Source: a virus
Strand: one strand, 5' to 3'
DNA: 46,574 nucleotides
IMG/VR virus record: IMGVR_UViG_3300045988_007914
Position numbers and translations under genes: made by a program. The notes beneath the pieces are model-generated. The model saw nothing but the letters and a program-made list of their open reading frames with translations, did no database searches and was not told where the DNA came from. Each line of letters opens with the position of its first letter. Position 1 is the stretch's first letter. Of the stretch, positions 2,326 to 42,321 are shown one piece after another.

Positions 2326-2483
2326 ACCTGTCAGAAGTACAGGTAAATGACCTCGCAAGACCTTTAGTGGGTATCATCACAAAGTTTTACGCAGACCCTA
2401 AGAATGAGGAGGATTTTCAGAAATGGCTACGCAATGTAGAGGAACGAAAACAAAAAGAATCAACAGGCACAAGCTCGCTGTGA
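2322..2483 (+). CDS. Hypothetical small protein (53 aa, below the track cutoff)
   Basis: Own translation: MNLSEVQVNDLARPLVGIITKFYADPKNEEDFQKWLRNVEERKQKESTGTSSL. ATGA-type overlap with the upstream stop. It overlaps the 5' end of the next ORF. Confidence 0.3.
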   Translation: MNLSEVQVNDLARPLVGIITKFYADPKNEEDFQKWLRNVEERKQKESTGTSSL

Positions 2484-3088
2484 TTCAAGCATATATCATC
2501 ATCGGTACGTTGGTACTGATTGGCTTTATCGGTGGTCTTATCGTAGGACGAGCTACCGCTCCGAAGAAACAAGTTACCGTAACGGAGACGGTTGAAGTTC
2601 CTTCCTACGAAGCCGATTCCCTCCCGGTTGCAGAAGAAGTTACATATTTCGATGTACCACTTTCACACAGCTTACAGAGATACATCTACGAGGTGTGTGC
2701 GGACGAAAATGTTCCAGTGTCACTCGTTATCGCAATGATAGACCAAGAGAGCAAGTTCAACCCGGAAGTGGTTAGTAAGACCGGGGATTACGGTCTCATG
2801 CAGATTAACACCATCAATCACGAATGGCTGGCAGAGGAATACAGAACAGCAGATATGCTTGACCCATATCAGAATGTCTTCTGCGGAATCAAGGTCATTG
2901 GTTCGTACATTCAGAACTACAATGACTACGGTTTATCTCTGATGGCATACAACATGGGTGATTACGGTGCTAAGAAAGCATGGGAAAACGGTATCAAATC
3001 CACCTCATTCAGTGAGAGTGTTCTTGCTCTCATGCAAAAGTATGAACAGGAGGTGAATGTAAATGCCACAAATGCTGACGCTAAGTAA
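2423..3088 (+). CDS. Membrane-anchored lytic transglycosylase (SLT domain)
   Basis: N-terminal TM helix, then ..AMIDQESKFNP..YGLMQIN.. (catalytic Glu motif). GAGGAGG lies 9 nt upstream. An alternative coupled GTG start is at 2480. Confidence 0.8.
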   Translation: MATQCRGTKTKRINRHKLAVIQAYIIIGTLVLIGFIGGLIVGRATAPKKQVTVTETVEVPSYEADSLPVAEEVTYFDVPLSHSLQRYIYEVCADENVPVSLVIAMIDQESKFNPEVVSKTGDYGLMQINTINHEWLAEEYRTADMLDPYQNVFCGIKVIGSYIQNYNDYGLSLMAYNMGDYGAKKAWENGIKSTSFSESVLALMQKYEQEVNVNATNADAK

Positions 3089-3672: not shown

Positions 3673-5069
3673 TTGAAGTCTCAAACACACTGACGGTCGA
3701 GAACCCTACCCCGGAAATGGTGCTGTGGTGCAAGAGAAATCTTACCATACCAAACCCGGAATATGCGAAGAAATCTCGCATGAACCTATGGCTCGGCAAC
3801 ACGCCGAAAGTCCTGTCGCTCTATGAGACCCGAGGAACAACGCTGGTACTTCCGTTTGGAACACTCCGGCTACTACCGAAGGACATATCCGATAAGGCAC
3901 TGTTCTTGAGCGAATTTGCCGCCCCTGTGAAGGTGAATTATAACGCTGATGTTCCACTCTATGACTACCAAGAAACCGCCGTACAAGCGATGGTAGCCGC
4001 CCAGTATGGGATATTACAGAGTGCCGCCGGAAGCGGTAAAACGCAGATGGGTATTGCCCTCGCCGCAAGGCTGGGACGGCGTACATTATGGCTCTGCCAC
4101 ACACTCGACCTTATTAAACAGAGTAAGGAACGAGCCAAGCTCTATATGAGTGAAGACCTCATGGGTACTATCACGGAAGGAAAAGTCAATCTCGGTGAGG
4201 GAATCACCTTCGCCACGATTCAGACGATGTGCAAGCTCGACCTCGCACAGTACCGGGACTACTGGGATTGCATTATCACAGACGAGGTACACCGGGTCAG
4301 CGGCAGTCCTACCGCCGTGACACAGTATCAAAAAGTGCTGAACAGTTTATCGGCACGACACAAGTACGGTTTGTCAGCAACGGTACACAGGTCAGACGGA
4401 ATGATTCGAGCTACCTACGCCCTTGTTGGTGAGGTCGCTTACAAAGTCCCGGACGAAGCTGTGGCTGACAAGATTATGAAGGTAGGTATCTACCCTGTGG
4501 GTACAGGGGTGCAGATAAGCCGGGAAGCCCTTAACACGGACGGAACGTTGAACTACACCAAGCTCATTACCTATCTTACCGAAAACGCCGCCCGGAATCA
4601 GCTCATTGCCGATTCCATCGAGCAGAGACCTTCTCTGATTCTGTCGGACAGGCTGAATCACCTTGAAACATTGATAAGTCTTCTCCCGGTTGATATGCAG
4701 AAGGACGCTGTGATGATAAGCGGCAAAATGACAACTAAAAAGGGCAAGGCTGAACGAGAACAGGCTCTTGAGGACATGAGGAGTGGCAAGAAGAAATACC
4801 TCTTTGCTACATACTCACTGGCGAAGGAAGGGCTGGACGTACCACGGTTGGAGCGTCTGTACCTCACCACCCCACAGAAGGACTACGCTGTGGTGACACA
4901 GAGTATCGGGCGTATCGCTCGTACCTTCGATGGAAAGTCAGACCCTATCGCCTACGATTTCGTGGACGATATAGCTTACCTCGTGAAGTCCTATAAGAAG
5001 CGATGTACGACCTATCGAAAGAACGGTTGCTACTTCGTAAAGGAAGGAGGGACAAGCCCATGCGATTGA
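3654..5069 (+). CDS. SF2 DEAD/DEAH-box DNA helicase
   Basis: Walker A AAGSGKT, motif II DEVH, helicase C-terminal domain. Confidence 0.85.
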   Translation: MVEEMLIEVSNTLTVENPTPEMVLWCKRNLTIPNPEYAKKSRMNLWLGNTPKVLSLYETRGTTLVLPFGTLRLLPKDISDKALFLSEFAAPVKVNYNADVPLYDYQETAVQAMVAAQYGILQSAAGSGKTQMGIALAARLGRRTLWLCHTLDLIKQSKERAKLYMSEDLMGTITEGKVNLGEGITFATIQTMCKLDLAQYRDYWDCIITDEVHRVSGSPTAVTQYQKVLNSLSARHKYGLSATVHRSDGMIRATYALVGEVAYKVPDEAVADKIMKVGIYPVGTGVQISREALNTDGTLNYTKLITYLTENAARNQLIADSIEQRPSLILSDRLNHLETLISLLPVDMQKDAVMISGKMTTKKGKAEREQALEDMRSGKKKYLFATYSLAKEGLDVPRLERLYLTTPQKDYAVVTQSIGRIARTFDGKSDPIAYDFVDDIAYLVKSYKKRCTTYRKNGCYFVKEGGTSPCD

Positions 5070-7567
5070 TTTCTTATGACTGTGAGGTCTTCGCCTATGA
5101 CTGGCTCGTAACCCTCAAGGATAAGGAAACAGGCGTTTACACCTGTATTTGGAACGACAACGAAGCTCTGAAAATGGCATTGTCCGATGATTGTATTTAT
5201 GTCGGTTTCAACTCGAAACACTACGACCAGTACATCATCAAAGCGATTGCCGCCGGGTTTGCCCCGGAGGAAATTAAAAAGGTCAACGATTTCATTATTG
5301 CCGGAGGGCAAGGCTGGCAGTGTCCGCTACTTGATGGTATCTACTTCCGTTTCAGCAACGTGGATATTCGAGACGATACGCAACAGGGTCTATCCCTTAA
5401 AGCTATCGAAGGACACCTCGGTATGTCGGTTAAAGAATCCAGTGTACCGTTTGACATTGACCGTCCTCTAACCCCGGAGGAAAAAGCCGAGACGGAGTTC
5501 TACTGTAAACATGACGTTGATACCGCCGAGAGACTGATTGACATTCGTAAAGACTACTTGAAGAACAAAATCAACCTCGGTCGGCTGGCTGGTCTTGATG
5601 AAGTCAAGGCAATGGGTATGACGAACGCCAAACTGACTGCGGCAATGCTGAAAGCAACCAAGAAGCCACACGATGATGAACGCAAGTATGTCTACCCGGA
5701 CAATCTGCGAAAAGAGTACATACCACCCGAGGTTTTCGCTTTCTTCGATAGAATGTATGACCTCTCCATTTCGGACAGTGAGCTTTTCAAAGGCAAGTTC
5801 AATCTGAACATCGGTGAGTGTCCTGTGACACTCGGGTATGGCGGTATTCATGGTGCAATCCCAAACTTCTTTTGGGAGGAAACCGAGGATAGAGGAATTT
5901 GGAATGAGGACGTAGGAAGCTACTACCCACACCTCTGTACCATCAATGGGTACACAAGCAGAAACATTCCGTCTCCGCAGATTTACGAGGACATTCTTGA
6001 CCGCCGAATGAAAGCGAAAGCCGCTGGCGATAAGCACACGGCGAACGCTCTGAAACTGGTTTGCAACACCACCTACGGTTGCTTGCTGAATCAGTACAAC
6101 GACCTCTACGACCCTCTCATGGGTAGGTCGGTCTGCATTTCCGGGCAGTTATATCTACTGGAACTTGCAGAGCATTGTTACCAAGAGATTGAAGGACTGC
6201 GAATTGTCCAGCTCAACACGGACGGTATCATGGTCGAGTGCGATAAGAAGGACTACGACACACTGACCGCTATCTGTGCTGAATGGCAGTCTCGTACAGG
6301 CTTTGACCTCGAGGAAGATACCGTTGTCAAGATAGCGCAGAAAGACGTAAACAACTACGTTGAGGTTCAGCCGGGCGGCAAAGCAAAAGCCAAAGGCGGC
6401 TATCTCGTGAAGGGTATCGCTCCGGCTGGTGCTTTCAATATCAATAACTCCTGTGTGATTGTGGCTACCGCTCTCAAGGAATTCTTTGTAAACGGAACGC
6501 CTGTCGAAGACACCATAAATAGTTGCGATGATATTTTCCAGTTTCAGATTATCGCCAAAGCCGGGGCGAAGTACCGAGAAGCCTATCATGTGGTGGACGG
6601 TGAAAAGCAGTCCGTTCAGAAGGTGAACCGAGTGTACGCCACAGCGGACGAGAGATACGGAAAAATCTTCAAGGTGAAAGCCGAGGACGATTCCGAAGCG
6701 AAAATAGATTCTCTCCCGGAACACTGTATCATCGACAACGATAATGAGCTTTCCATTGACGAGGTAGACAGAAGTTTCTACATCACAATGGCGAAAAAGC
6801 GAGTTGACGATTTCAAGGGTATCAAACCCGAAAAAACTAAAAAGCCAAGGAGGACAAAGAAAATGGCAACTACTACCAAGACCGCAAATGTATATCAGAA
6901 GCTCCTTACTGCAAGGGCAAAGTTCCTTGAAGCGAACGTGGAGAAGACAGGAAAGAATATGCACCTGTCCTTCAAATACTTCGAGCTTGAGGACATTGTA
7001 CCGACCGCTATCCGCATTTTCAATGAGGTTGGTCTTATCCCTGTGGTGAACTTCACCGCTGATGTTGCAGCCATGAACATCATCAACACCGACAACCCGG
7101 AGGAATCCGTACCGTTCGTTGCTCCGTTTAATCAGATTGCTCCTATCGTGAGCAACGCTGGCAAACAGGCTACAAACGAAATGCAAGCTCTCGGTTCTTC
7201 CATCACCTATATGCGCCGTTACCTGTATATGATTGCGCTGGACATTTGCGAGAGCGATTCCATTGACGCAAATCTCGGCAAGGGTGAGACTGCTTCCGCT
7301 CCGGCGGCAGAGAGAAAAGCTCCGGCTACTCCCGAACAGAGACAAGAAGTGAAACAGGAACTCACTGCTCCGGCTGACAACGCTTCTACTTTACAGATTA
7401 AGGGTCTGAAAGCAGTTCTCAAGAAGCTCAAGGACGCTGACCCGAGCAAGGAGGAACTGATTGCGAATATCGCAGTACAGACCAAGGGATTCACGGAGAT
7501 TTCCAAGTCCGATTGCGAAACGCTGATTCAGAAGATTACCGCAATGCTGGAAGGAGGGGCTAAGTAA
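5060..7567 (+). CDS. Family-B DNA polymerase continuing in frame into an ERF-type single-strand annealing domain
   Basis: Track ORF 5003..7567 trimmed to the ATG at 5060 (GGAGGG RBS). Exo motifs YDCEVF, FNSKHYD, YCKHDVD. Polymerase motifs DVGSYYPH, KLVCNTTYG, LNTDGI. There is no stop before the ERF part. Confidence 0.75.
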   Translation: MRLISYDCEVFAYDWLVTLKDKETGVYTCIWNDNEALKMALSDDCIYVGFNSKHYDQYIIKAIAAGFAPEEIKKVNDFIIAGGQGWQCPLLDGIYFRFSNVDIRDDTQQGLSLKAIEGHLGMSVKESSVPFDIDRPLTPEEKAETEFYCKHDVDTAERLIDIRKDYLKNKINLGRLAGLDEVKAMGMTNAKLTAAMLKATKKPHDDERKYVYPDNLRKEYIPPEVFAFFDRMYDLSISDSELFKGKFNLNIGECPVTLGYGGIHGAIPNFFWEETEDRGIWNEDVGSYYPHLCTINGYTSRNIPSPQIYEDILDRRMKAKAAGDKHTANALKLVCNTTYGCLLNQYNDLYDPLMGRSVCISGQLYLLELAEHCYQEIEGLRIVQLNTDGIMVECDKKDYDTLTAICAEWQSRTGFDLEEDTVVKIAQKDVNNYVEVQPGGKAKAKGGYLVKGIAPAGAFNINNSCVIVATALKEFFVNGTPVEDTINSCDDIFQFQIIAKAGAKYREAYHVVDGEKQSVQKVNRVYATADERYGKIFKVKAEDDSEAKIDSLPEHCIIDNDNELSIDEVDRSFYITMAKKRVDDFKGIKPEKTKKPRRTKKMATTTKTANVYQKLLTARAKFLEANVEKTGKNMHLSFKYFELEDIVPTAIRIFNEVGLIPVVNFTADVAAMNIINTDNPEESVPFVAPFNQIAPIVSNAGKQATNEMQALGSSITYMRRYLYMIALDICESDSIDANLGKGETASAPAAERKAPATPEQRQEVKQELTAPADNASTLQIKGLKAVLKKLKDADPSKEELIANIAVQTKGFTEISKSDCETLIQKITAMLEGGAK
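6863..7567 (+). CDS. erf: ERF-family annealase, possibly translated separately from an internal start
   Basis: AAGGAGG at 6847-6853, 9 nt before the in-frame ATG at 6863. ..SFKYFELEDIVPTAIRIFNEVGL..GSSITYMRRYLYMIALDI.. resembles P22 Erf. Confidence 0.55.
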   Translation: MATTTKTANVYQKLLTARAKFLEANVEKTGKNMHLSFKYFELEDIVPTAIRIFNEVGLIPVVNFTADVAAMNIINTDNPEESVPFVAPFNQIAPIVSNAGKQATNEMQALGSSITYMRRYLYMIALDICESDSIDANLGKGETASAPAAERKAPATPEQRQEVKQELTAPADNASTLQIKGLKAVLKKLKDADPSKEELIANIAVQTKGFTEISKSDCETLIQKITAMLEGGAK

Positions 7568-8867: not shown

Positions 8868-9377
8868 ATGGCAAGAATCCCTATGACGAGCGGTTTTGTA
8901 ATTATCCCGGAGGGAGAATACGTTTTCCGCATTTATGACGCAACCTATGACGAGGATTTCGGTCGTATCGAAATCATGCTGGTAAACGCACAGGGCGCAA
9001 CCCACACCGAGCGTTTCTCTATCAAGGATAAGAACGACGAGTACAACGAAAAGGCTCTGAACGCTTTCTCCTACTTCGCTAAGACGGCTATGAACGATTA
9101 CACGATGGAGGACATTGACCCGGAACAGCTTATCAATCACTACATTCGTGCAGAGGTTGTTCACACCAAAGTTCCGAGCAACAAAGACCCGAACAAGGAA
9201 GTCACTTTCGCAAACCTCGGGGACAAGTCTCCGGCAGATGGTTTCGACACCGAGCCTGTCGCTCGTGCGCTCACTCTCGGCAGTGGTAACAATGCCGCTC
9301 TGAAAGCCGCACCTAAGACACAGACTGCTTCCGCTCCGGCTAAGACTGGACTGGATATTGACGCACTGTTGGGTTAA
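8868..9377 (+). CDS. DUF669-like protein, possible ssDNA-binding partner of the recombination module
   Basis: N-terminal ..PEGEYVFRI.. pattern, disordered acidic tail ..LDIDALLG, position after erf and exo. Confidence 0.45.
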   Translation: MARIPMTSGFVIIPEGEYVFRIYDATYDEDFGRIEIMLVNAQGATHTERFSIKDKNDEYNEKALNAFSYFAKTAMNDYTMEDIDPEQLINHYIRAEVVHTKVPSNKDPNKEVTFANLGDKSPADGFDTEPVARALTLGSGNNAALKAAPKTQTASAPAKTGLDIDALLG

Positions 9378-9385
9378 GCAATCAG

Positions 9386-9417
9386 CCGGGAGGGGCAAGC
9401 TCCTCTCCCGGATTTTT
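9386..9417 (+). terminator. Rho-independent terminator
   Basis: CCGGGAGGG / CTCTCCCGG stem (one G-U pair), 8-nt loop, then ATTTTT. Confidence 0.5.
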
Positions 9418-9432
9418 AATAGGAGGTGTCGC

Positions 9433-9699
9433 ATGACAGATAATGTCAATCACCCGGCACATTATGAGACCGGGAAATTCGAGTGCATTGAGGTAATGCT
9501 CGAGACACAGGGCGTGGAAGCTGTTCTGAATTTTTGTCAGTGCAATGCTTTCAAGTACCTGTATCGTGCCAAGCGGAAGAATGGTCTCGAGGACATGAAG
9601 AAAGCCGTTTGGTATCTGAACAAATATATCGAATTGAAGGAGGGTCATAACTATGACGAAACGACAGTTGGTGAAATGGCTGGAAGCCAAACAGAGTGA
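9433..9699 (+). CDS. DUF3310-family protein
   Basis: MTDNVNHPAHY..ECIEV..NAFKYLYRAKRKNG signature. AGGAGG RBS. Confidence 0.65.
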   Translation: MTDNVNHPAHYETGKFECIEVMLETQGVEAVLNFCQCNAFKYLYRAKRKNGLEDMKKAVWYLNKYIELKEGHNYDETTVGEMAGSQTE

Positions 9700-10216
9700 C
9701 GCAAAGGCAGAGGTCGAAATCCAGTACGCAACGGCTGAAAAAGCCTATTTTGCACAGAGAGACGAAGCTCTGAAAATCAATGAAACTGTGGACGAGGTGT
9801 TCCGTTTGATTTCGGAAGCTGATACGGTGGCGAACCGCTGGAAAGAAGCTCTCGAGAAGGTTGAAGGGATTGATACTACCCGTGGTTGGTACACCTCTTT
9901 GACAACGAAGCTCTCTGATTTGTCTGATAAAGAGAACATTCGTATGTACATTATGAAGGATTTCACGGACGGCACTGACGCTCTCCGTCAGTTGAAAGCA
10001 AAGCGTTCCGAAACCATTCGTGAAATTGAGAAGAACTATACCAATGTGATTGCGAATGTGGAATCCATGAAGAACGCAAAGACGGCGGTTGAGTATCTTG
10101 AGAAGCTGGGGTTCGACCTGTCCGCTCTGATTGAAGCTGACAATCACCCTGTTACTACCGCGCTCACTGTGGAGGTAGATACCAAGTTTCTGTTTATCGG
10201 AGGTGAAAAGAAATGA
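9653..10216 (+). CDS. Hypothetical coiled-coil protein
   Basis: Track ORF with a GGAGGG RBS. Confidence 0.55.
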   Translation: MTKRQLVKWLEAKQSDAKAEVEIQYATAEKAYFAQRDEALKINETVDEVFRLISEADTVANRWKEALEKVEGIDTTRGWYTSLTTKLSDLSDKENIRMYIMKDFTDGTDALRQLKAKRSETIREIEKNYTNVIANVESMKNAKTAVEYLEKLGFDLSALIEADNHPVTTALTVEVDTKFLFIGGEKK

Positions 10217-11520: not shown

Positions 11521-12258
11521 ATGATTAAATTTGAGAAACCCGAGGTATGGGGCTGGGAACACGCTATCCGAGGAATGAGAAATCCCCTTAATAGCTGGGA
11601 ACGCTCCGACAGCTACCCGGCGGTTGACTGCGGCAAGTGTGGAATCATCGACCGAGAAGGAATCTGTCACCCGAAGGAGCATGACTGTACTCCGTATGAG
11701 TGCTATGCAATCGGTGACAATGATAAAGACCTTATGACCCGGCTCATTTGTAGCGGCGCACCTCACCGTAAGTTCCTCCGTCAGATTTTCGTATCGGTGG
11801 ATATTACCGCTCCTCTCTACTGGTGGAAGGAGTTCGATACATACAAGGTTGGCACGACAGCTAATAGCTGTTCCACCATGCACAAGATACAGGCAAAGGA
11901 GTTCACCTTCGAGGACTTCTCCTGTGAGCATTTGGACGAGCCGAGCAAGGCGATTCTCGGTGTTGTGATTAACGAGCTTAACAACAATCGTGGCTGGTAC
12001 AACGATTACAACAGGCTCGTAAGCGAGGGTGATTTCACCGATGTAGAGCGCAAGCAGTTTTGGTGGAATATGATTCAGCTTTTGCCCTCCTCTTTCAATC
12101 AGAAGCGAACGGTCACTATGACCTACGAAAACCTTCTGAATATGCTGGAATATCGCAGAGGTCACAAGCTGGACGAGTGGCGTATGTTCTGCGATTGGAT
12201 TCTCACCCTCCCTTATGGTTCGCTCTTGAAGGAAGGTGTGGGTAATGAACAGAGCTGA
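11521..12258 (+). CDS. ThyX-like (flavin-dependent thymidylate-synthase fold) protein with a substituted signature motif
   Basis: ITAPLYWWKEFDTYKVGTTANSCSTMH aligns by eye, residue for residue, to the ThyX signature ..aP....Q..RHR......S.RY, but RHR is TYK and SQRY is STMH. Confidence 0.4.
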   Translation: MIKFEKPEVWGWEHAIRGMRNPLNSWERSDSYPAVDCGKCGIIDREGICHPKEHDCTPYECYAIGDNDKDLMTRLICSGAPHRKFLRQIFVSVDITAPLYWWKEFDTYKVGTTANSCSTMHKIQAKEFTFEDFSCEHLDEPSKAILGVVINELNNNRGWYNDYNRLVSEGDFTDVERKQFWWNMIQLLPSSFNQKRTVTMTYENLLNMLEYRRGHKLDEWRMFCDWILTLPYGSLLKEGVGNEQS

Positions 12259-12661
12259 ACGGCGTAGGCAGAAGAAAGCCGGAATTAAGGTACAGAAAGA
12301 ACCCACTCTGAATCTGAAAGTCAGTGCTTTCGACCACATGGTCTCTCATGCGGAGAAGTCAGCCAAGGAAAGAGCGACAGCGGCGGCAATCCACGAAATC
12401 GACCGACAGATTCTTGAGCATGACGAAGCCTATTCTCTCGACATTGACGCAATGGTGCTGTGGACGCTTCATGTTTACCTCGGGTTCGGTAAGAAGCGTC
12501 TCGAGAGATTCTACCGGGATATGTTGAAGGAACACATTCACATGAGGGAGGTCTACGAAATGGACGATACCTACCCGGAACGCTACAAACTCAAGGAGCT
12601 TTGCAATGTCGATGTGGAAGCTCTGAATAATGAATTTAAGGAGGTTATACACAATGTATAA
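12245..12661 (+). CDS. Hypothetical protein
   Basis: Track ORF trimmed to the ATG at 12245, after AAGGAAGG. Confidence 0.55.
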   Translation: MNRAERRRQKKAGIKVQKEPTLNLKVSAFDHMVSHAEKSAKERATAAAIHEIDRQILEHDEAYSLDIDAMVLWTLHVYLGFGKKRLERFYRDMLKEHIHMREVYEMDDTYPERYKLKELCNVDVEALNNEFKEVIHNV

Positions 12662-12905
12662 GTTGAAGAACGTCAACGGCAGAGTGAACGCTCTGCTCCG
12701 CACCGGGAAGGACTTCGTAAAGAACAACCTCTCCGTGTTTGCGGCACAGCATATCATTGACACTGGTAAGCTGGTGGAATCTGACAACCCGGACTACCCT
12801 ATCTGCATTGACAATCAGTGGTATTTCGAGGATGTCGAGGTCAAAAAGACAGCGAAGAAAGCCCAGTTGAGTTCCATGTATGGGGAAATGAAGGAGGGCA
12901 AGTAA
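12654..12905 (+). CDS. Hypothetical protein
   Basis: Track ORF trimmed to the ATG at 12654, after AAGGAGG. Confidence 0.55.
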   Translation: MYKLKNVNGRVNALLRTGKDFVKNNLSVFAAQHIIDTGKLVESDNPDYPICIDNQWYFEDVEVKKTAKKAQLSSMYGEMKEGK

Positions 12906-13202
12906 ATGAGCCGAACTTTCTACTCCGAGTATGTGAATCATTGTCTGCGATTCTATGCTCGACATGACAGACCGAAGTTCCACTCGGAAGCAGACGAGCA
13001 TAACTGGGCGGCGTGTGACAGCGCACTCAAGTCGTTCTCCGATAATGACCGAGCAATGCTTCTGTATATCTATCGTGAGGGCGATACCGTCCCGGACAAT
13101 ATCTATCAGTTGGCGAAGTCCAAAGGTATCTCACAGGACAGCATTTGGAAGCTCGTAAATGAGCTGGAAAGAAAGGTGGCAAAGCGGCGTGGTTTACTAT
13201 GA
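12906..13202 (+). CDS. Small sigma-70-region-4-like HTH protein, candidate late-gene regulator
   Basis: ..RAMLLYIYREGDT..IYQLAKSKGISQDSIWKLVNELERKVA.. resembles a region-4 or ArpU/RinA-type HTH. Weak call. Confidence 0.4.
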   Translation: MSRTFYSEYVNHCLRFYARHDRPKFHSEADEHNWAACDSALKSFSDNDRAMLLYIYREGDTVPDNIYQLAKSKGISQDSIWKLVNELERKVAKRRGLL

Positions 13203-13983
13203 CAATATTCCCGAGGAATTAAAGAAACTCGACCAGTGGGTGTGTGCGAATGATGGAAGCAAAGTCCCCATGAAAGCATGGGAGAACGAAGCCGCTTCCT
13301 CCACCAACCCGGAAACATGGTCTGATTTCGAGACTGCTCTCGAATCGTACAACCAGCACTATTACGACTACTGTGGTTTCGTGTTTGCGGACAATGGGTA
13401 TGTCGGGATTGATATTGACGAGGGGTACGATGAAGACGGTCTTATGAGTGTCCTCGGGGCTGATATTGTCGGTAAGTGCCACAGCTATACGGAGAAATCC
13501 CGGAGTGGGCGTGGATTCCATATCCTACTCCGTGGAACTCTCCCCTTCAAGGGCAAGAACAATCTTGCTGGCGTGGAGATTTACAAGGCGGCTCGATACT
13601 TCATTATGACTGGGAACACCCTTCTCTACCGAGAAATCATCGAGAACCAAGAAGCGATTGATTATGTGGTGGAGAAATACTTCCCGGAAGCTCGAGAGAC
13701 CTCCGATAAGGTGGTTGTTGGGCGAGACAAGATATACGCCCCGGTATGGGAAGAACCTGTCGTAAATGGGCGTGTAAAGCTCCGTCCAGTATATCCAAGA
13801 ATCCCGGACGGAAGCCGCAATATCTGTCTCACCTCCCTCGCTGGTATGCTCCACAATCAAGGCTATTCCAAGTCACAGATTTACGAGGAGCTGTTGTACG
13901 CCAATACGGTTGCCTGTGACCCACCTCTTGATAGGAACGAACTGCGAACTATCTGCAACAGCGTCACGAGGTACAAGCGATGA
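13159..13983 (+). CDS. Bifunctional primase-polymerase (prim-pol) with a PriCT-like C-terminus
   Basis: ..GIDIDEG..SRSGRGFHIL..; start uncertain. Confidence 0.7.
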   Translation: MSWKERWQSGVVYYDNIPEELKKLDQWVCANDGSKVPMKAWENEAASSTNPETWSDFETALESYNQHYYDYCGFVFADNGYVGIDIDEGYDEDGLMSVLGADIVGKCHSYTEKSRSGRGFHILLRGTLPFKGKNNLAGVEIYKAARYFIMTGNTLLYREIIENQEAIDYVVEKYFPEARETSDKVVVGRDKIYAPVWEEPVVNGRVKLRPVYPRIPDGSRNICLTSLAGMLHNQGYSKSQIYEELLYANTVACDPPLDRNELRTICNSVTRYKR

Positions 13984-14180
13984 AGATTAAATGCTGTAAG
14001 GACTGCGTTGCTCCGAAGCGACACCCCGGCTGTCACGGTGTATGTCCCGAGTACCTATACGAAAAGGCACTGTGGGAGGAAGAAAAGAAAGTCATTCGTG
14101 AGGAACATAGGCGATTCAGTGAGCTATACGAGCAACGCTCCGAGGGAGTGCGAAAAGCACTTAAACATAGAAGACGATAA
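13980..14180 (+). CDS. Small Cys-rich protein
   Basis: MKIKCCKDCVAPKRHPGCHGVCPE.. Confidence 0.5.
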   Translation: MKIKCCKDCVAPKRHPGCHGVCPEYLYEKALWEEEKKVIREEHRRFSELYEQRSEGVRKALKHRRR

Positions 14181-14193
14181 CTTGCACAGAAAA

Positions 14194-14245
14194 GATAAAA
14201 ATTTATCTTTTAGGTATTGACATTCAATCTTGTATGTGTTATCTT
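14194..14245 (+). promoter_or_regulatory. Operator GATAAAAATTTATC plus an extended -10 promoter (TTGACA-17-TGT-TATCTT)
   Basis: Palindrome at 14194-14207, a 9-nt gap, TTGACA at 14217-14222, TATCTT at 14240-14245. The whole unit is homologous to 20600-20714. Confidence 0.55.
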
Positions 14246-14298
14246 ATAATCACAGCAAGGCAAAAACTTATCCAATAAAGATTAAGGAGGATTTTATC

Positions 14299-14886
14299 AT
14301 GGAAGTTATGAGAAACATGACTATTGACACTGAACTGTTTGAACTGGGAGACATTATCTCCTTCACACTCATCACCGGGGAGAAGGTTAAAGCGAAAGCC
14401 ATTCGTGAGACCCCGAACGGTATGCTTTTCATTACCGTTGACTGTCTCAAGGACGAGCAGAAAATGTTCGAGAATCCCGGCAGAGCCGAAAAGGTTGACT
14501 ACGAACATTCCGACCTTCGCAAGAAGCTGAACGGAGAAATCTTCGAGAGCTTCCCGGAGGAAATCAAGGGTCGCATGGTTGGTATGCGAGTAGGTCAGAC
14601 GAACTGCTTTGATATGCTCCGTATTCCTACCGAGCGTGAAATCTTCGGAGAGAACCCTTACGGTAAGGACGAGCCTGTATCTGTGAGACGCTTCTACGGC
14701 ATGGAGAACCGCCGTGAGCGTATCGCTTTCCAAGGCTCGGAGACAGGTACATGGGAATGGTACTGGTTGCAGAACAAGGTTGAGGATTCCGCTTCCCTTT
14801 TCGCCAGTGTCGACGGCGACGGTCGTGCGGCCTGCGGCGACGCTTCCGATTCTTTTGGCGTTCGCCCGGTCTTTCTCTTATCCTAA
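14299..14886 (+). CDS. DGR target protein 2 (195 aa, C-type-lectin/DUF6273-like fold, no signal peptide or structural N-domain seen)
   Basis: Track ORF trimmed to the ATG at 14299, after AAGGAGG. C-terminus ..WEWYWLQNKVEDSASLFASVDGDGRAACGDASDSFGVRPVFLLS carries VR2. Confidence 0.85.
   Translation: MEVMRNMTIDTELFELGDIISFTLITGEKVKAKAIRETPNGMLFITVDCLKDEQKMFENPGRAEKVDYEHSDLRKKLNGEIFESFPEEIKGRMVGMRVGQTNCFDMLRIPTEREIFGENPYGKDEPVSVRRFYGMENRRERIAFQGSETGTWEWYWLQNKVEDSASLFASVDGDGRAACGDASDSFGVRPVFLLS
14785..14869 (+). repeat. DGR variable repeat VR2
   Basis: 85 nt align without gaps to TR 42232-42316. All 18 mismatches fall on TR adenines. Confidence 0.9.
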
Positions 14887-14889
14887 AAT

Positions 14890-14910
14890 CTCGCCCCCTT
14901 GTGGGGCGAG
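14890..14910 (+). promoter_or_regulatory. GC hairpin 20 nt after VR2 (CTCGCCCC-CTTGT-GGGGCGAG)
   Basis: 8-bp stem and 5-nt loop. A near-identical copy lies at 41651-41671. Confidence 0.7.
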
Positions 14911-14936
14911 TTCAATAAAGAACGGAGGTGAATGTC

Positions 14937-15107
14937 GTGCAGACAAGATGTGAAGACTGTAAGAAAAGATGTGTCTGCCACGCTTGCCCTCTACATAATC
15001 AATGCCGCTACACTTTGAGGTGTAAATCCTCAAAGTGTTACTGCGGAAAATATAGGAGGTTATCAGAAAATGGAACAGAACAAAATCTGTCCTCTCCTCA
15101 CGACTAA
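14937..15107 (+). CDS. Possible Cys-rich small protein (56 aa, GTG start)
   Basis: GGAGGTG lies 6 nt upstream. Own translation: MQTRCEDCKKRCVCHACPLHNQCRYTLRCKSSKCYCGKY.. It is below the track cutoff. Confidence 0.3.
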   Translation: MQTRCEDCKKRCVCHACPLHNQCRYTLRCKSSKCYCGKYRRLSENGTEQNLSSPHD

Positions 15108-15237
15108 CACTGTCGTAGACGAGAATAACACCGTGAAAATTGGCACACAGCCTGTTTTCTGCGTAACCGAGCAGTGTTCGTGGTGGTTGGAGGACAAACA
15201 GAAATGTGCAATCGCAGTTATGGGAGGTAAGAAATAA
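15070..15237 (+). CDS. Small protein (55 aa), TAATG-coupled to the MazF-like gene
   Basis: AGGAGG RBS. MEQNKICPLLTTNTVVDENNTVKIGTQPVFCVTEQCSWWLEDKQKCAIAVMGGKK. Confidence 0.4.
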   Translation: MEQNKICPLLTTNTVVDENNTVKIGTQPVFCVTEQCSWWLEDKQKCAIAVMGGKK

Positions 15238-15695
15238 TGGCATATTACATGAATAAGAGCGTCCCGGCGAAGCGAGGAGATATTTTCTACATTTCCAACT
15301 CCAAGTGCTACGCCACAGACCCGAGTAATACAGAGGGAAGACCAGCAATCGTTGTCTCCTCTGATAAATTGAATGAACACGCAGATGTTGTCGAGGTAGT
15401 CTTTCTCACCACCAAGGAAAAGCGTCTCATGCCTACTCACGCAGAGGTGCTGTGCAAGATTCCTTCAACTGCTCTGTGTGAGACCATCTATACGGTCAAT
15501 AAGGACAGGCTGGGCGATTTCGTCCGTACCTGTACCGATAAGGAAATGGAGGGTGTCAATGCTGGAATCCTCTGCTCACTCGGTATCGCCGCTCCTGTGG
15601 TCGATGGTGAGCCTGTTGACAACTCTGTAACGGTCGAGAGGAATCTTTACAAGCACCTCTACGAAGACCTTCTCAATAAGGTAATGGCGAGGTGA
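15237..15695 (+). CDS. PemK/MazF-fold toxin-like protein with a ~40-aa C-terminal extension
   Basis: ..AKRGDIFYI..EGRPAIVVSSD..VVEVVFLTTK.. matches the MazF/PemK N-terminal pattern. Confidence 0.6.
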   Translation: MAYYMNKSVPAKRGDIFYISNSKCYATDPSNTEGRPAIVVSSDKLNEHADVVEVVFLTTKEKRLMPTHAEVLCKIPSTALCETIYTVNKDRLGDFVRTCTDKEMEGVNAGILCSLGIAAPVVDGEPVDNSVTVERNLYKHLYEDLLNKVMAR

Positions 15696-16108
15696 TGGAT
15701 ATGGGTAAAGGAGTTGATATGAGCTGGGAAGACATTCAGAATGAGTTCGACATTATGAACCGAATGTCGTGCCGCCCGGTTGGGTTGCAAAAAGTCCCCG
15801 GCAATCATATTTTCGATGAAGACCAGTCTGTGAAATGGAACAGAGAACAGGTCGAATTGAATAACAAGAAGTATCAGAGTGAAGTCGCTCGGCTCAACAC
15901 CGAGAAGAACAAGGCTCGAGATTCCGTCTACAATCTGATTATCGAAAAGATTCAGTATGAGGTGGGTCACAGGCTCTCTCGCAAGAAAGCGGAAGCCATT
16001 TGGAATCGTGCCTATGAGGACGGACACTCTTTCGGATTCTATGAAATCCGTTGCCGCCTGTCAGACCTTATTGATTTGGCGATTACTCTGCTGGGAGGTG
16101 ATAAGTAA
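15692..16108 (+). CDS. Hypothetical protein
   Basis: Track ORF. Confidence 0.55.
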   Translation: MMDMGKGVDMSWEDIQNEFDIMNRMSCRPVGLQKVPGNHIFDEDQSVKWNREQVELNNKKYQSEVARLNTEKNKARDSVYNLIIEKIQYEVGHRLSRKKAEAIWNRAYEDGHSFGFYEIRCRLSDLIDLAITLLGGDK

Positions 16109-17598
16109 TGCAAGAGCTTTTCGAGACACGCAACGGTCGTGTCATTATGGACGAGGACTTATCCTCAAAGATGTATCTGATTAAGCAGTATCACCCCGAG
16201 AAAGCAGACGAGACCAGCTCCGGGTTTGAGTGGTCTGAAATGGGTATGGCAAACCTGTTCGGCTTGCTCTACTCTCACGAAGCTCGCTACTGCCCGGAAC
16301 ACAAGAGCTGGTACACCTATCACGAGGGAGCATGGCGTAAGGACGAGGGAGCAATTCTCGTGTCCGAGAAGATTAAAGATTTCGTCCGTCTAATGATTCT
16401 CTACTGCGGAGAAATCGAGGACGATGATACCCGAAAGTCCTACACCGGGTTCGTAAATAAGATGGGTGACAGGCGTATGCGAGATAGAATCCTCAAGGAC
16501 GCAACAGGTGAGCTTCGTATCTCTGCTGTGCAGTTTGACGCAGACCCCTATCTCATTAACTGTCTCAATGGTACATACGACCTTCGAGACTTCTCCTTCC
16601 GGGAACATAGCTGGGACGATTTTCTCACCATGCAGACAGCATTTAGCCATACTATCTCCAAGACGGTTAAGTGTAAACGCTGGGAGAAGTTCATTAAAGA
16701 GGTCACACAGAATGACGAGGACAAAGCAGACTTCCTTCAAAGGGCTTTGGGCTACTCCATGCTGGGTATGAGCAATGAGGAGTGTATGTTCATTCTTCAT
16801 GGTAAGACCACTCGTAACGGTAAGTCTACTCTGCTCAACACCATCGAGACTATGCTCGGTGACTATGCCAAGGTTGCCCCGGTCGGTATGATTTGCCGTG
16901 GAGACCGTCAGAAGGACGCAGAAGCCGCCAGTCCTACCCTTGCCGGGTTGAAGGGCAAACGCTTCGTAACAATGTCCGAGAGCAACGAATACGGCAAGCT
17001 GGACGAGGAGAAAATCAAACAGCTTACAGGTGGTGAGGAAATCTCCGCTCGTGCGCTGTATCAGTCGGCAATCACATTCAAGCCGCAGTTTACGTTATGG
17101 CTTTCCTGTAACGACCTTCCGATGGTGACAGACAAGTCCCTGTTCGCTTCCGAGCGTATCAAGGTGGTAGAGTTCAACCGCCACTTCTCCCCGGAGGAAC
17201 AGGACACTCACCTCAAGGACGAGCTGTGTGAGCAGTCCAGCATGAGCGGCATTTTCATGTGGCTGGTGCGTGGGTATATCCACTACAAGGAGCGTGGACT
17301 TGCTATGAGCGGCAGTCTGAAATCGGTTGTCACCAAGTACGAGCGTGATAACGACCTCGTGTTGCAGTTCCTCGAGAACCGCTGTGAGCGTGTCCCGGAG
17401 GAAAGCTCACCGACCGTTATCAAGGCGAAAGACCTGTACAACGCTTTCAAGATTTGGGCGAAGTCCGAGGGTGCTTATATCCTGTCGGCTCGTAAGTTCA
17501 ATTCTGAAATGGAGCGTCACCCGGAGTGGTTCGACAGGAAATCGACCTCGAGTGGTTATGCAACCTATTGTGGTCTGAAATTGAAGGAGGTGCTGTAA
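16108..17598 (+). CDS. D5/P4-family primase-helicase (SF3 NTPase)
   Basis: ..DPYLINCLNGTYDL.., Walker A HGKTTRNGKST. Confidence 0.85.
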   Translation: MQELFETRNGRVIMDEDLSSKMYLIKQYHPEKADETSSGFEWSEMGMANLFGLLYSHEARYCPEHKSWYTYHEGAWRKDEGAILVSEKIKDFVRLMILYCGEIEDDDTRKSYTGFVNKMGDRRMRDRILKDATGELRISAVQFDADPYLINCLNGTYDLRDFSFREHSWDDFLTMQTAFSHTISKTVKCKRWEKFIKEVTQNDEDKADFLQRALGYSMLGMSNEECMFILHGKTTRNGKSTLLNTIETMLGDYAKVAPVGMICRGDRQKDAEAASPTLAGLKGKRFVTMSESNEYGKLDEEKIKQLTGGEEISARALYQSAITFKPQFTLWLSCNDLPMVTDKSLFASERIKVVEFNRHFSPEEQDTHLKDELCEQSSMSGIFMWLVRGYIHYKERGLAMSGSLKSVVTKYERDNDLVLQFLENRCERVPEESSPTVIKAKDLYNAFKIWAKSEGAYILSARKFNSEMERHPEWFDRKSTSSGYATYCGLKLKEVL

Positions 17599-18258
17599 AT
17601 GAGCGGACAAATCGCATTGCGTCCGTCATACTGGGCGAGCGTTTCCGGCGGCAAAGATAGTTTGTATATGCTGAATTACATACTGCATAACCTCGATAGA
17701 TACCCTCTCAACGGAGTTGTCCATTTTGAACTCGAAATCGACTATCCGTTTATTCACGATGTTATCGACTACATGGAATCCGAATGTAAGAGGTTCGGTA
17801 TTCAGTTCGTGAGAATCAAACCCCGGAAGTCATGGGGAGAACTGTATGATAAATACGGTTTCCCAACGAGAAAAGCAAGGTGGTGCAACGGTCACTATAA
17901 ACTGGACGCAAGTAGACAGTTATCCGAGTGGTTGAATGAAGTCGGTTTTTATGTAGTGCATTATATCGGGTATTGTGCTGACGAGGAACGCCGTTTCAAC
18001 AAACGGTTGAGTGCCAAAAAGTTAGAGATATACCCTCTTGCAGAAAACGGTATTAACGAAGATGTGATTTTAGAATGGGCGAAGACACAACCTATCTTCA
18101 ATCACTACTACGAGATTAACCAGCGTTGCGGTTGTATGTACTGCCCCATGTCCTCTTATCTGAACTTCGCATACCTGTATAAATACTATCCCGATAATTT
18201 CCAGTTTATGATTGGAAAAATGCGAGAAACCGAAAGATTGAGAGAGAGAGCTTGGTAG
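17599..18258 (+). CDS. PAPS-reductase/PP-loop family protein, apparently truncated at a (GA)n tract
   Basis: SVSGGKDS PP-loop, C-terminal CGCMYCP. The +1 frame stays open for 44 more codons after GAGAGAGAGAG at 18240-18250. Confidence 0.75.
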   Translation: MSGQIALRPSYWASVSGGKDSLYMLNYILHNLDRYPLNGVVHFELEIDYPFIHDVIDYMESECKRFGIQFVRIKPRKSWGELYDKYGFPTRKARWCNGHYKLDASRQLSEWLNEVGFYVVHYIGYCADEERRFNKRLSAKKLEIYPLAENGINEDVILEWAKTQPIFNHYYEINQRCGCMYCPMSSYLNFAYLYKYYPDNFQFMIGKMRETERLRERAW

Positions 18259-19300: not shown

Positions 19301-19314
19301 GATAAGTATTTATC
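19301..19314. promoter_or_regulatory. Fourth copy of the GATAA-N4-TTATC palindrome (GATAAGTATTTATC), followed by a degenerate copy of the P14/P20 promoter
   Basis: 19335-19362 (TATCTGAAAAGGATTGAAAAACAATCTT) parallels 20618-20645, but no good -10 follows. Confidence 0.4.
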
Positions 19315-20329: not shown

Positions 20330-20354
20330 GCTCCGGGATTTCCCGGGGCTTTTT
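20330..20354 (+). terminator. Rho-independent terminator
   Basis: GCTCCGGG-ATTT-CCCGGGGC followed by TTTTT. Confidence 0.65.
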
Positions 20355-20607: not shown

Positions 20608-20659
20608 GATAAATTTTTATCTGAAAAGTATTGACAAACAATCTTGAAAGTGTTATTGT
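20608..20659 (+). promoter_or_regulatory. Operator GATAAATTTTTATC plus an extended -10 promoter (TTGACA-17-TGT-TATTGT)
   Basis: Palindrome at 20608-20621, a 9-nt gap, TTGACA at 20631-20636, TATTGT at 20654-20659. Confidence 0.55.
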
Positions 20660-22374: not shown

Positions 22375-22402
22375 CAGCCCCGGTTATATGCCGGGGCTTT
22401 TT
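22375..22402 (+). terminator. Rho-independent terminator closing the cassette
   Basis: CAGCCCCGG-TTATATG-CCGGGGCT followed by TTTTT. Confidence 0.7.
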
Positions 22403-22788: not shown

Positions 22789-22840
22789 GATAATTTCTTA
22801 TCCTATCAGTGTTGACAATCTCCCTTTCTCGTGCTATACT
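22789..22840 (+). promoter_or_regulatory. Operator GATAATTTCTTATC plus an extended -10 promoter (TTGACA-17-TGC-TATACT)
   Basis: Palindrome at 22789-22802, a 9-nt gap, TTGACA at 22812-22817, TATACT at 22835-22840. Confidence 0.55.
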
Positions 22841-22872
22841 CGTATCACAAACAACAAACAGGAGGTCAAAAC

Positions 22873-23082
22873 ATGGTTAAGAATAACATTGAAGTTGATG
22901 TAAAGGTGAAGCTCCTCGAAGCTGGGAAGACACAACAGCAGTTGGGTGAAGAAATCGGCACTACTGGACAGTACATCAACCGAGTTCTCAAGAAGAATGG
23001 TGGAATCGTGAACGATACCTTCGTGAAAATGATGGACGCTCTCGGTTATAACATCGTTCTCACCTACGAAAAGAAGGATTGA
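22873..23082 (+). CDS. Small XRE-family HTH regulator (69 aa)
   Basis: ..GKTQQQLGEEIGTTGQYINRVLK.. HTH. AGGAGG RBS. Confidence 0.7.
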   Translation: MVKNNIEVDVKVKLLEAGKTQQQLGEEIGTTGQYINRVLKKNGGIVNDTFVKMMDALGYNIVLTYEKKD

Positions 23083-23965: not shown

Positions 23966-24367
23966 ATGAAGAAAATGCTATCTATTATGCTTGCCGGAGT
24001 GCTTATGCTGGCGGTCTCCGGGTGTGAAGCTGAACCACAACACAAGGTCTCGTATGTCAGCGGAGAAAAGCTCACTGTTCTCGAGCAGTACGATTGTGTA
24101 GCTGTCTATACGCAGTACACCAACGACAGCTCCGAAACTGCTGTCCCGGCTGATGAAGTGTCGGTCAAAGCATTTCAGAACGGTGTCGAATTGTCACCGA
24201 TTGTCCCGACAAGTGACAGAACCAACGGCTATGTGCAGTGTGATTCCAATGTGCAGAGCGGCACGACCGCTGATGTGGTGTGGCTGTTCGAGCTTGACGA
24301 TGATTCTACCGTATCGGTGGAGCTGTCCGGCGGCGAGAAGGTCGAAATCCCATTGACAGAGGAATGA
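23966..24367 (+). CDS. Lipoprotein (DUF4352/DUF5067-like beta domain)
   Basis: Signal peptide with lipobox LMLAVSGC. GGAGG RBS. Confidence 0.75.
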   Translation: MKKMLSIMLAGVLMLAVSGCEAEPQHKVSYVSGEKLTVLEQYDCVAVYTQYTNDSSETAVPADEVSVKAFQNGVELSPIVPTSDRTNGYVQCDSNVQSGTTADVVWLFELDDDSTVSVELSGGEKVEIPLTEE

Positions 24368-41650: not shown

Positions 41651-41671
41651 TGCGCCCCCTTGTGGGGCGCA
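41651..41671 (+). promoter_or_regulatory. GC hairpin 20 nt after VR1 (TGCGCCCC-CTTGT-GGGGCGCA)
   Basis: Same loop, spacing and flanking AATCT as the hairpin at 14890-14910. Confidence 0.7.
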
Positions 41672-41690: not shown

Positions 41691-42233
41691 GTGTCTGTAT
41701 TGAAATCGAAACGAAAACCGTCACAGTTTGAGGTATTTCACCACCTCAACAAAATGCGTAAGGAGGTCACGGATTTACTGCTCCGTGATTTCGGGTACGA
41801 CCTCGACAAAGCCGTGAAGAAAGTCGAAACGACCTTCGGCGGCAGACCGTATGAGGAGTTATCACCCGATGAAAAAGTCCGATATGAAAAGCTCATGGAA
41901 AAGAACACTGCGTTTGCAGAATGGTTCATCGCAGACGAGCGAAAAGTGATTGTTGATTGTCTGCGTAATATCACCGAGGAGGTATATGTTGCAAACAGCA
42001 TTTACCCAACCTACCGGGAAGAACTGGTTGAGCGTAGAGTTCACCAAGACCGAGCAGTCGGACAGTGTTATAGGCTCACACAGGAATTGCAGTATGCTAT
42101 CGAGACCCTTCCTGTCGATGTGAACAAGTACCTTCGTTTCGCTGAAATGATACAGACCGAAATAAACCTTCTTAAAGGTTGGAGAAAGTCTGACAACAAG
42201 TTCAAGTCGGCTCTCCAAGAGGGTAATCTCTGA
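41691..42233 (+). CDS. avd: Avd-like accessory protein (180 aa, helical)
   Basis: Lies between VR1 and TR as in canonical DGRs. GTG start after AAGGAGG. Longer than typical Avd proteins. Confidence 0.6.
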   Translation: MSVLKSKRKPSQFEVFHHLNKMRKEVTDLLLRDFGYDLDKAVKKVETTFGGRPYEELSPDEKVRYEKLMEKNTAFAEWFIADERKVIVDCLRNITEEVYVANSIYPTYREELVERRVHQDRAVGQCYRLTQELQYAIETLPVDVNKYLRFAEMIQTEINLLKGWRKSDNKFKSALQEGNL

Positions 42234-42321
42234 TTCCGCTTCCAATTTCGCCAATGTCAACAACAACGGTAATGCGAACTACAACAACGCTTCCAATTCT
42301 AATGGCGTTCGCCCGGATTTC
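42232..42321 (+). repeat. DGR template repeat (TR)
   Basis: 23 adenines in the 81-nt core, arranged as 11 AAY codons plus TAC in the target frame. GC-rich 3' end GGCGTTCGCCCGG is shared with both VRs. Confidence 0.9.

Follow-up and report, generated by a model that had tools for sequence, protein, structure and literature searches.

The genome analysed here raises the question why a phage should direct a mutagenic machine at a small gene lying among its replication genes, and what the product of such a gene might do. To our knowledge, DGRs are the only natural machines for targeted protein hypermutation in microbes, and in phages they are understood almost wholly as switches of tail-fibre tropism. 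The window, by which we mean the whole stretch of DNA that was analysed (46,574 nucleotides; IMG/VR record IMGVR_UViG_3300045988_007914), is a siphovirus-type genome of about 46.5 kb, and its source is a gut phage in which one mutagenic retroelement hypermutates two genes. One of these genes, target 1, stands next to the DGR cassette at the tail end of the genome, and the other, target 2, is found 27 kb away. An earlier reading made from the letters alone (the sequence-only reading) had described target 2 as a remote DGR target which is separately regulated, apparently cytoplasmic and intended for a different job from that of a tail fibre, such as a hypervariable binder or a lysogen-expressed moron.

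The late end of the genome carries a canonical DGR cassette, with, in this order, target 1 with its variable region VR1, an avd-like gene, the TR, the reverse transcriptase (RT) gene, and then the endolysin and holin genes. Target gene 1 (40745-41647, + strand; 300 aa) closes the tail module and contains VR1 at 41550-41630, exactly where it had been placed before. Its residues 1-46 match phrog_27494, a virion structural protein family, and its C-terminus scored 23.4 bits against DUF6273, just under the Pfam cut-off of 23.5. The avd-like accessory gene (41691-42233, + strand; 180 aa) had a weak match to phrog_3206, "Avd protein of DGR" (E = 3.3e-5), and no match in the Pfam search. The RT gene (42387-43598, + strand; 403 aa) was identified by RVT_1 (8.9e-13) and phrog_1423 (1.2e-54), and its product carries the motifs YMDD and IGDQVAQ, the latter of which we take to be a variant of the DGR-type motif.

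When read in frame, the TR (42232-42316, + strand) forms a string of AAY codons, which contain most of its 24 adenines. When the TR was aligned with VR2 (14785-14869, + strand), the TR-templated variable region of target 2, the alignment ran without a gap over 85 nt, and 67 of the 85 positions were identical. All 18 mismatches fell on TR adenines, so that 18 of the 24 adenines were changed, and on careful alignment none of the 61 non-A positions differed. The probability that 18 mismatches placed randomly over the 85 positions would all land on the 24 adenines is about 1e-13. One extra A-to-T change was found a single base past the alignment (42317/14870), where the homology between TR and VR2 stops. 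Both strands of the window were also scanned for the kept non-A positions of the TR, and the scan returned the TR, VR1 and VR2 only; the first four TR bases are unmatched in VR1. Our re-alignment agrees with the sequence-only reading in the gapless match and in the restriction of the 18 mismatches to adenines, and the adenine-only pattern, in a window that holds two VRs only, indicated that the second, non-adjacent DGR target is genuine.

We then considered the signals that could guide mutagenesis to this distant site. The GC-rich GGCGTTCGCCCGG ends VR1, VR2 and TR alike, and 3' of it the flanks of VR1 and VR2 resemble each other and are unlike the flank of the TR. Accordingly arranged is the IMH-like 3' end of VR2 (14857-14889, + strand), in which GGCGTTCGCCCGG is the same as in the TR, and the 20-nt spacer that follows is the same as in VR1 but not as in the TR. 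Exactly 20 nt past GGCGTTCGCCCGG, both VRs have an 8-bp GC stem with a 5-nt loop, which bears out the earlier remark that one GC hairpin follows VR1 and VR2. The VR2 hairpin (14890-14910, + strand; CTCGCCCC/GGGGCGAG around the 5-nt loop) had a folding energy of -11.5 kcal/mol with z = -4.2 and is without a T-run, and the VR1 hairpin (41651-41671) had -12.5 kcal/mol, while folding of the TR flank against shuffles gave no such hairpin (z = 0.17). The position of the hairpin is kept across related loci, where the stems differ in sequence yet still pair, as in CTCGCCCC/GGGGCGAG and CACACCCC/GGGGTGTG; the stem is CCCGGGGCC/GGCCCCGG in Acutalibacter phage Fontainebleau and CCCGCCGC/GCGGCGG in Roseburia phage Shimadzu. 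A role of the post-VR hairpin as transcription terminator was rejected, since it has no T-run and is present after both VRs.

In Bordetella phage BPP-1, the IMH and a downstream hairpin/cruciform direct the DGR cDNA to the VR. By analogy, the GC-rich end, the spacer and the hairpin of VR2 may be regarded as IMH-like recognition elements. Following the established DGR mechanism, an RT/Avd complex would copy the TR RNA into cDNA with the adenines misread, and the mutated cDNA would replace VR2 in trans, 27 kb off, guided there by the GC-rich end and by the spacer and hairpin that VR2 has in common with VR1 and that are absent in the TR. On the sequence evidence, we conclude that the phage's only DGR has a functional second target in the gene at 14299-14886.

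To follow the gene in natural populations, we compared 117 homologues (79-95% identical). Column entropy was at least 2.7 bits only at 11 AAY-templated residues (167, 170, 172, 173, 174, 176, 178, 180, 181, 184 and 186), the TAC-templated residue 179 had 1.8 bits, and all other columns had at most 2.0 bits. Of the 12 templated positions, 5-12 differed from the window in sampled members of the 90%-identity cluster of target 2, as did only 1-5 positions elsewhere. Among 27 full-length alleles, pN/pS was 0.13 for the scaffold and 7.1 for the VR, which showed that the scaffold of target 2 is under purifying selection. Relative to a simple uniform A-to-N model, from which the true error spectrum of the RT may differ, Tyr, Asp and Gly were enriched 1.7- to 3.2-fold at the variable positions and Pro occurred at 0.02 times the expectation, and this composition suggests that selection acts on the protein. 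In 14 of 14 IMG/VR contigs that have homologues of both target 2 and the RT, the local TR was sought within the 300 nt that precede the RT, and VR2 departed from it at 7-18 adenines and 0-3 further sites. These results demonstrated that VR2 is diversified in nature, within the lineage; the A-site-restricted variation foreseen by the sequence-only reading was observed at the level of homologues (the 117 proteins and all 14 contigs). Clustered at 90% identity, target 2 comprised 13,623 distinct sequences and target 1 comprised 3,833, and this greater number of recorded variants than on the tail side points to a second selective pressure.

A few homologues (L029 and L067) lack the hairpin, which might be taken as a sign that target 2 is a chance relic, namely a degenerate copy of the target-1 C-terminus that is neither mutagenised nor functional any more. 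However, the adenine pattern with its P of about 1e-13, the intact hairpin, the massive A-site-restricted diversity in the population and the purifying selection on the scaffold all argue against such decay, and this extremely improbable explanation is excluded. As a separate observation, several contigs stop inside the VR or at most about 25 nt from it, which fits assembly breaks at hypervariable sites.

Target gene 2 (14299-14886, + strand) encodes a standalone DUF6273 protein of 195 aa, which matched Pfam PF19789 over residues 46-194 with 37.8 bits (cut-off 23.5) and phrog_21980, a family of unknown function, with 1e-18. Its ATG lies 8 nt past the Shine-Dalgarno sequence AAGGAGG (14284-14290), and a longer ORF beginning with TTG at 14230 was rejected as the start, as it would begin inside the promoter. 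Homologues numbered 1658 in one search and formed 2,858 clusters at E <= 1e-10; the VR scaffold is common to the members, and the motifs WEWYWLQN and GVRPxF are found family-wide. In a phage collection, megablast of positions 12000-18000 gave no match and tblastn with the target 2 protein found two phages only, and NCBIfam returned nothing for either target, Avd or the neighbour genes. Similarity between target 1 and target 2 is confined to the VR end. Target 2 matched none of the PHROG structural families, whereas target 1 matches one, consistent with the earlier statement that no virion-attachment domain is seen. Absence of a transmembrane helix was likewise confirmed by hydropathy, in which the highest 19-residue Kyte-Doolittle mean was 1.03 and thus below transmembrane level; the pI is 4.9.

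The AF2 model of the protein, built with 136 sequences, had a pLDDT of 71, with about 90 in the N-terminal half and below 50 over residues 128-184; an earlier model from 40 sequences had a pLDDT of 64, and its Foldseek comparison with the PDB was uninformative. The predicted layout consists of a small beta-barrel at residues 17-46, a helical region and the C-terminal VR. Foldseek against BFVD, run with a model that is poor over the VR half, retrieved DUF6273 proteins (best E = 6e-5), and the best PDB hit, 9qa6, whose N-terminal domain is DUF6273, was not significant (E = 0.43). Neither Foldseek, with the same limitation over the VR half, nor HMM comparison matched the protein to Mtd, TvpA or FGE, and the family HMM profile had no hit among PDB sequences up to E = 10. 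The sequence-only reading had called the C-terminus C-type-lectin-like. Such a fold would follow from DUF6273 membership, the CLec assignment of DUF6273 being taken from the literature (PMC10743442; 10.1101/2024.10.15.618418), and the structural comparison, made on a model poor in the VR half, did not retrieve Mtd, TvpA or FGE. A paper on an IgA peptidase gives no function for the DUF6273 domain of that enzyme.

We next examined where the gene is placed. Replication and recombination genes extend over about 3.3-18.3 kb of the window and include a Holliday-junction resolvase, a helicase, a DNA polymerase fused to Erf, a RecE-like exonuclease, an HD hydrolase, a prim-pol, a D5 helicase and a PAPS-reductase-like gene. 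They are followed by the terminase at 24.5 kb, the portal, the major capsid protein, the tape-measure gene at 32.4-37.1 kb, tail genes to 40.7 kb, the DGR and lysis. Target 2 is located between the prim-pol (13159-13983) and the D5-type helicase (16108-17598), 27 kb from the DGR cassette, and its assignment to the replication (early) module, well away from the tail genes, was therefore upheld. The two flanking functions are a single fused gene in phrog_1829. In the window, target 2 belongs to a small variable islet together with two Cys-rich mini-ORFs, a MazF-like gene and a phrog_10980 gene, and the gene content of this islet differs among close relatives. Linkage to MazF was rejected as a rule: it was found in the window's clade, L042 and L048, and was absent from L038, L039, L045 and most others.

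Homologues of target 2 were found in comparable surroundings in other phages. They lie between a DEAD helicase and a DNA polymerase in L059, L064, L068, L071, L074 and L079, and in the same slot, with a DNA methylase in between, in P0233. DNA polymerase A immediately precedes them, and a VapE-like helicase follows, in Fontainebleau and P0276, and in L029 as judged from the upstream sequence only. The Shimadzu homologue lies between a methyltransferase and Erf, that of L075 follows a large methyltransferase and precedes a replication initiator, and that of L049 stands directly before a D5 helicase; in L048 the region also has a primase and RecT, in L067 the homologue precedes a ParB-like gene, and in L006 it is upstream of a DnaD-like gene. 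No capsid or tail neighbours were seen in about ten independent phage contexts. In several lineages the gene is promoterless and either comes after a replication gene or overlaps it. In lineages that have the window's replication genes at 50-63% identity, target 2 occupies another slot of the same module, so the gene has moved while staying in the replication module. Judged by these gene contexts, the replication-module position of the small target is a rule across lineages and not an accident, and many abundant gut phages have kept such a second target in their replication module.

Among known systems, Cornuault et al. described a VR2 in orf43 of Roseburia phage Shimadzu (10.1101/575076; ISME J 2020) and demonstrated its mutagenesis by experiment, about 2% of the virion reads having 10-15 DGR-type mismatches at both VRs (10.1101/575076). 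Like target 2, orf43 encodes a small protein of DUF6273 type, homologous to the target 2 product (28% identity, E = 1e-11), contains the second VR of a single DGR, is far from the RT in the early module, and has a GC hairpin after the VR. Unlike the window phage, Shimadzu is a myovirus, and its orf43 overlaps the preceding gene and lacks an own promoter. In Acutalibacter phage Fontainebleau (ON453893; host Acutalibacter muris), WAK78934.1 is 36% identical to target 2 and lies between DNA polymerase I and a helicase. The late end of this phage is organised as in the window, with target 1, an avd-like gene, TR, RT and lysis genes; its VR2 is about 25 kb from the TR, and the mismatches in the core of both VRs are adenine-only. 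Its gene differs from target 2 in starting 13 nt after the polymerase gene without a promoter, and the record calls the product a hypothetical protein. We found no paper describing the two VRs of Fontainebleau.

Mtd of Bordetella phage BPP-1, the founding DGR target, has a C-terminal VR in its ligand-binding domain and is served by an AAY-rich TR. Target 2 resembles Mtd in the C-terminal position of the VR, in the IMH with a downstream hairpin and in the AAY-rich TR, and there is no sequence or Foldseek match between the two proteins. Unlike target 2, Mtd adjoins its cassette, has 381 aa, is trimeric and attaches to the tail fibre through an N-terminal beta-prism (PMC10743442). Baykov et al. 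reported DUF6273-only second targets (tgt2) in the tentaclin phages nd4 and nd12 (PMC10743442). These are like target 2 in consisting of DUF6273 only, in having a C-terminal VR and in sharing one TR with a larger DUF6273 target, but they lie within the DGR cassette, outside the replication module.

"Large and small" DUF6273 targets were described by Gulyaeva et al. in the Faecalibacterium phages Lelie and CP11 (PMC11792537), and the iLund4u preprint found a distal core-gene target in 98.8% of Toutatisvirus genomes and proposed receptor binding for it (10.1101/2024.10.15.618418). As in the window, Lelie, CP11 and Toutatis have a large and small DUF6273 pair on one TR with the small one distal, and in the early region of Toutatis, gp24 is flanked by methyltransferase genes on one side and a replication initiator gene on the other, with intervening hypothetical genes. 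Their small target differs from target 2 in belonging to another DUF6273 subfamily, with BLASTP similarity at the VR end only (E = 0.038), and these phages differ from the window phage in being myoviruses with the large target downstream of the RT. The paper on Faecalibacterium phage FP01 contains no virion proteomics. Among phage-associated DGRs, Wu et al. found many that serve two targets within 50 kb, of which one is adjacent and the other is not (PMC5758913). A study of cultured gut prophages reports that distal second VRs adjoin counter-defence genes (Nature 2025, PMC12629997); of its 13 DGR-carrying prophage species, 12 were Bacteroidota phages, and four species have a second VR.

The novelty of a distal second target, which the sequence-only reading had implied, could not be maintained, because the same arrangement has been published (10.1101/575076; PMC11792537; 10.1101/2024.10.15.618418; PMC5758913), and the interpretation of distal VRs by their counter-defence neighbours is likewise already in print (PMC12629997). 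As far as we found, the cited papers do not contain the constant replication-module position across lineages, the movement of the gene within the module or the two-VR DGR of Fontainebleau. The window adds a clean example, and with the comparisons made here it shows that the early-module position is a rule across lineages and that the gene moves inside the module.

As to expression, a sigma-70-type promoter-like site, TTGACA-17-TGtTATCTT (14217-14245, + strand), with an extended -10 and a 10/12 consensus match, was found upstream of target 2, and the operator-like palindrome GATAAAAATTTATC (14194-14207, no strand assigned) ends 9 nt before its -35 hexamer. The promoter-like sequence and the GATAA-N4-TTATC site had thus been correctly recognised. 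The window contains four exact GATAA-N4-TTATC sites and seven within one mismatch, and shuffles gave a mean of 1.28 sites within one mismatch, with 0 of 100 reaching seven. The palindromes at 14194, 20608 and 22789 have the same 9-nt gap to a TTGACA-17-TGn-TAxxxT promoter. The modules at 20608 and 22789 are each preceded by a good terminator (20330 and 22376, respectively), and the latter module heads an HTH_3 gene and a unit running into the terminase gene. From this recurrence, target 2 would seem to be part of a small regulon. A role of the GATAA palindrome as the operator of a lysogeny switch is unlikely, the divergent strong promoters at 1928-2084 being without such a site.

Among 37 related loci of the window-like clade, the promoter was present in 31 and the palindrome in 30; the promoter was absent in L027, L028, L029, L068, L001 and L002. 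In L027, L028 and L029, whose proteins are 87-93% identical, and in all distant lineages, the gene is promoterless and lies directly behind a coding gene. No terminator was found between target 2 and 20330, where the next one on the + strand is located (GC-rich stem, 7/8 pairs), so that the operon headed by the promoter would span about 6 kb and take in the D5 helicase. Read-through from upstream into target 2 is unblocked. Hence the description of target 2 as separately regulated is overstated, as there is no terminator before 20330, the promoter module occurs three times and relatives are promoterless.

The near-consensus promoter with its upstream palindrome might also be read as a prophage-state promoter, from which a lysogen would express target 2 as a moron (lysogenic conversion), with the hypervariable protein aiding the host or excluding other phages. 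Close relatives are indeed integrated in bacterial contigs of Faecalibacterium and Dorea, PHROGs classes the MazF-like neighbour as "moron/host takeover", and a Mushuvirus preprint reports prophage-expressed, DGR-diversified lectin proteins. Against this, the gene is not followed by a terminator and hence is not an autonomous cassette, sister lineages have it promoterless right behind a replication gene, the protein has no predicted membrane-spanning segment, and two further units of lytic appearance begin with the same promoter module. We consider this explanation improbable. With no promoter-gene-terminator cassette, and with a hairpin that lacks a T-run, target 2 does not qualify as a classical moron by its sequence features, and that suggestion of the earlier reading was not sustained.

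We finally asked what the diversified protein may do. The product would be a small, soluble, standalone DUF6273 ligand-binding protein, in which about 12 surface positions would be randomised and the scaffold kept under purifying selection. It would be encoded by the first gene of a transcription unit in the replication module, together with the MazF-like gene and the D5 helicase, and its homologues appear to hold a like position in many unrelated Clostridia phages. The proposal that target 2 is apparently cytoplasmic and has a different job is plausible in this light. We tentatively favour, with a little less than even confidence, a hypervariable protein that is free rather than part of the virion and binds a variable ligand of the host or of a competitor; it would be made together with replication and counter-defence genes and would not be a tail-fibre subunit. 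We lean to a non-virion binder because the gene keeps so constant a place in the genome and is frequently coupled directly to replication genes: the approximately ten contexts are all of replication, recombination or methylase genes and none is structural, and distal second VRs adjoin counter-defence genes in PMC12629997. However, position is only circumstantial for timing and function, and neither a ligand nor any defence or counter-defence homology of target 2 was found.

Several features would also suit a virion-associated accessory adhesin or receptor-binding protein that is encoded outside the structural module and docks on the tail or capsid by its N-terminal mini-domain. In such a case the DGR would give the virion a second, independently varied binding specificity. 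The phage DGR targets known to us with a characterised function, namely Mtd of BPP-1 and further proteins of the tail or capsid surface, belong to the virion surface. The VR domain of target 2 is of the same scaffold type as in the tail-side target 1 and is templated by the same TR, the N-terminal beta-barrel (17-46), which is modelled with confidence, could serve for docking, and the palindrome-promoter module also stands before the unit leading into the terminase gene, so that co-expression of target 2 with late genes is possible. These points count against a non-virion binder, and so do the published proposals, since the authors on the small DUF6273 targets of nd4/nd12, which lie in DGR cassettes, and of Toutatisvirus suggested receptor binding. 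The variable positions, rich in Tyr, Asp and Gly, are moreover binding-site-like. On the other side, none of the approximately ten independent contexts is structural, a direct coupling of the gene to replication genes is common, a match to PHROG structural families is seen for target 1 but not for target 2, and the target 2 protein has no trimerisation or fibre-like region. An accessory adhesin is a serious possibility, to which we give clearly less than even credence.

Returning to the non-virion binder, it is conceivable, although rather unlikely, that the small standalone DUF6273 proteins from replication modules of Clostridia phages are a family of intracellular or lysis-released antibody-like binders, which one DGR would continuously re-randomise alongside the receptor-binding protein of the virion in pursuit of a variable host factor or a competitor. 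The host factors meant here would be, for example, a defence protein or an envelope precursor. If this were true, such proteins would add to the phage-host arms race an arm that is diversified and non-structural. Since Fontainebleau and Shimadzu, phages with named hosts, carry homologues, the function is experimentally approachable there.

In phrog_1829, prim-pol and the D5-type helicase form a single fused gene, and in the window the two genes (together spanning 13159-17598) are separated by a variable accessory islet. Target 2 (14299-14886, plus strand), the islet gene for the 195-aa DUF6273 protein with VR2 at its C-terminus, was found in all loci compared, which were themselves collected by means of target 2, and the presence of the MazF-like and phrog_10980 genes of the islet varies between close relatives. 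Two small Cys-rich ORFs of the CxxC type (13980-14180 and 14928-15107) lie on either side of target 2, neither with a family match, and a Cys-rich reading frame is likewise located upstream of the target 2 homologue in locus L042. A MazF/PemK-like toxin gene (15237-15695) follows 351 nt downstream of target 2, with no recognisable antitoxin partner, and locus L048 has a MazF-like gene, 36% identical, immediately upstream of its target 2 homologue.

A promoter module, consisting of the palindrome GATAA-N4-TTATC, 9 nt, TTGACA, 17 nt and an extended -10, was found in three copies in the window (14194-14245, 20608-20659 and 22789-22840), and a lone palindrome without the rest of the module is present at 19301-19314. 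The second and third copies are each located downstream of a strong terminator (20330-20349 and 22376-22398, respectively), with the third leading into an HTH_3 gene (22831-23082). As judged from these sequence features, the three copies suggest a three-promoter regulon under a putative dimeric regulator.

Acutalibacter phage Fontainebleau (ON453893, locus L087; host given as Acutalibacter muris) has, like the window, a DGR with two targets in the same layout (9330-9899, 34380-34486 and 35095-35201), and both targets are recorded as "hypothetical proteins". In Faecalibacterium phage FP_Toutatis (NC_047915, locus L168), a 50-aa CDS annotated as "DUF6273 domain-containing protein" (49048-49200) sits between avd and the RT gene, which is where the template repeat of Toutatis-type phages has been placed (10.1101/2024.10.15.618418); this CDS is probably the TR mistaken for a gene.

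The GC-rich hairpin that follows both VRs in the window was absent in two target 2 homologues (L029 and L067), which may be "frozen" targets of phages without an active DGR. Five IMG/VR contigs (L019, L024, L033, L036 and L046) terminate within the VR2 homologue or at most ~25 nt from it, as expected for metagenome assembly breakage at a hypervariable site.

Elsewhere in the window, a DNA polymerase (residues 20-613) and an Erf-like annealing protein (residues 607-850) share one 854-aa ORF (5003-7567), which is kept in L020 at 98.8%. Unlike this fusion, Erf in the P0233 locus (L169) is a stand-alone 245-aa gene, preceded by a 95-aa gene and a 657-aa gene, the latter without a Pfam match. An SLT-like transglycosylase gene is also present in the early region (2423-3088), and its product carries a membrane anchor at the N-terminus. 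The gene for a DUF5067 protein (23966-24367), which bears the lipoprotein signal LAVSGC, is flanked by the terminase gene and a gene for a serine recombinase of 251 aa.
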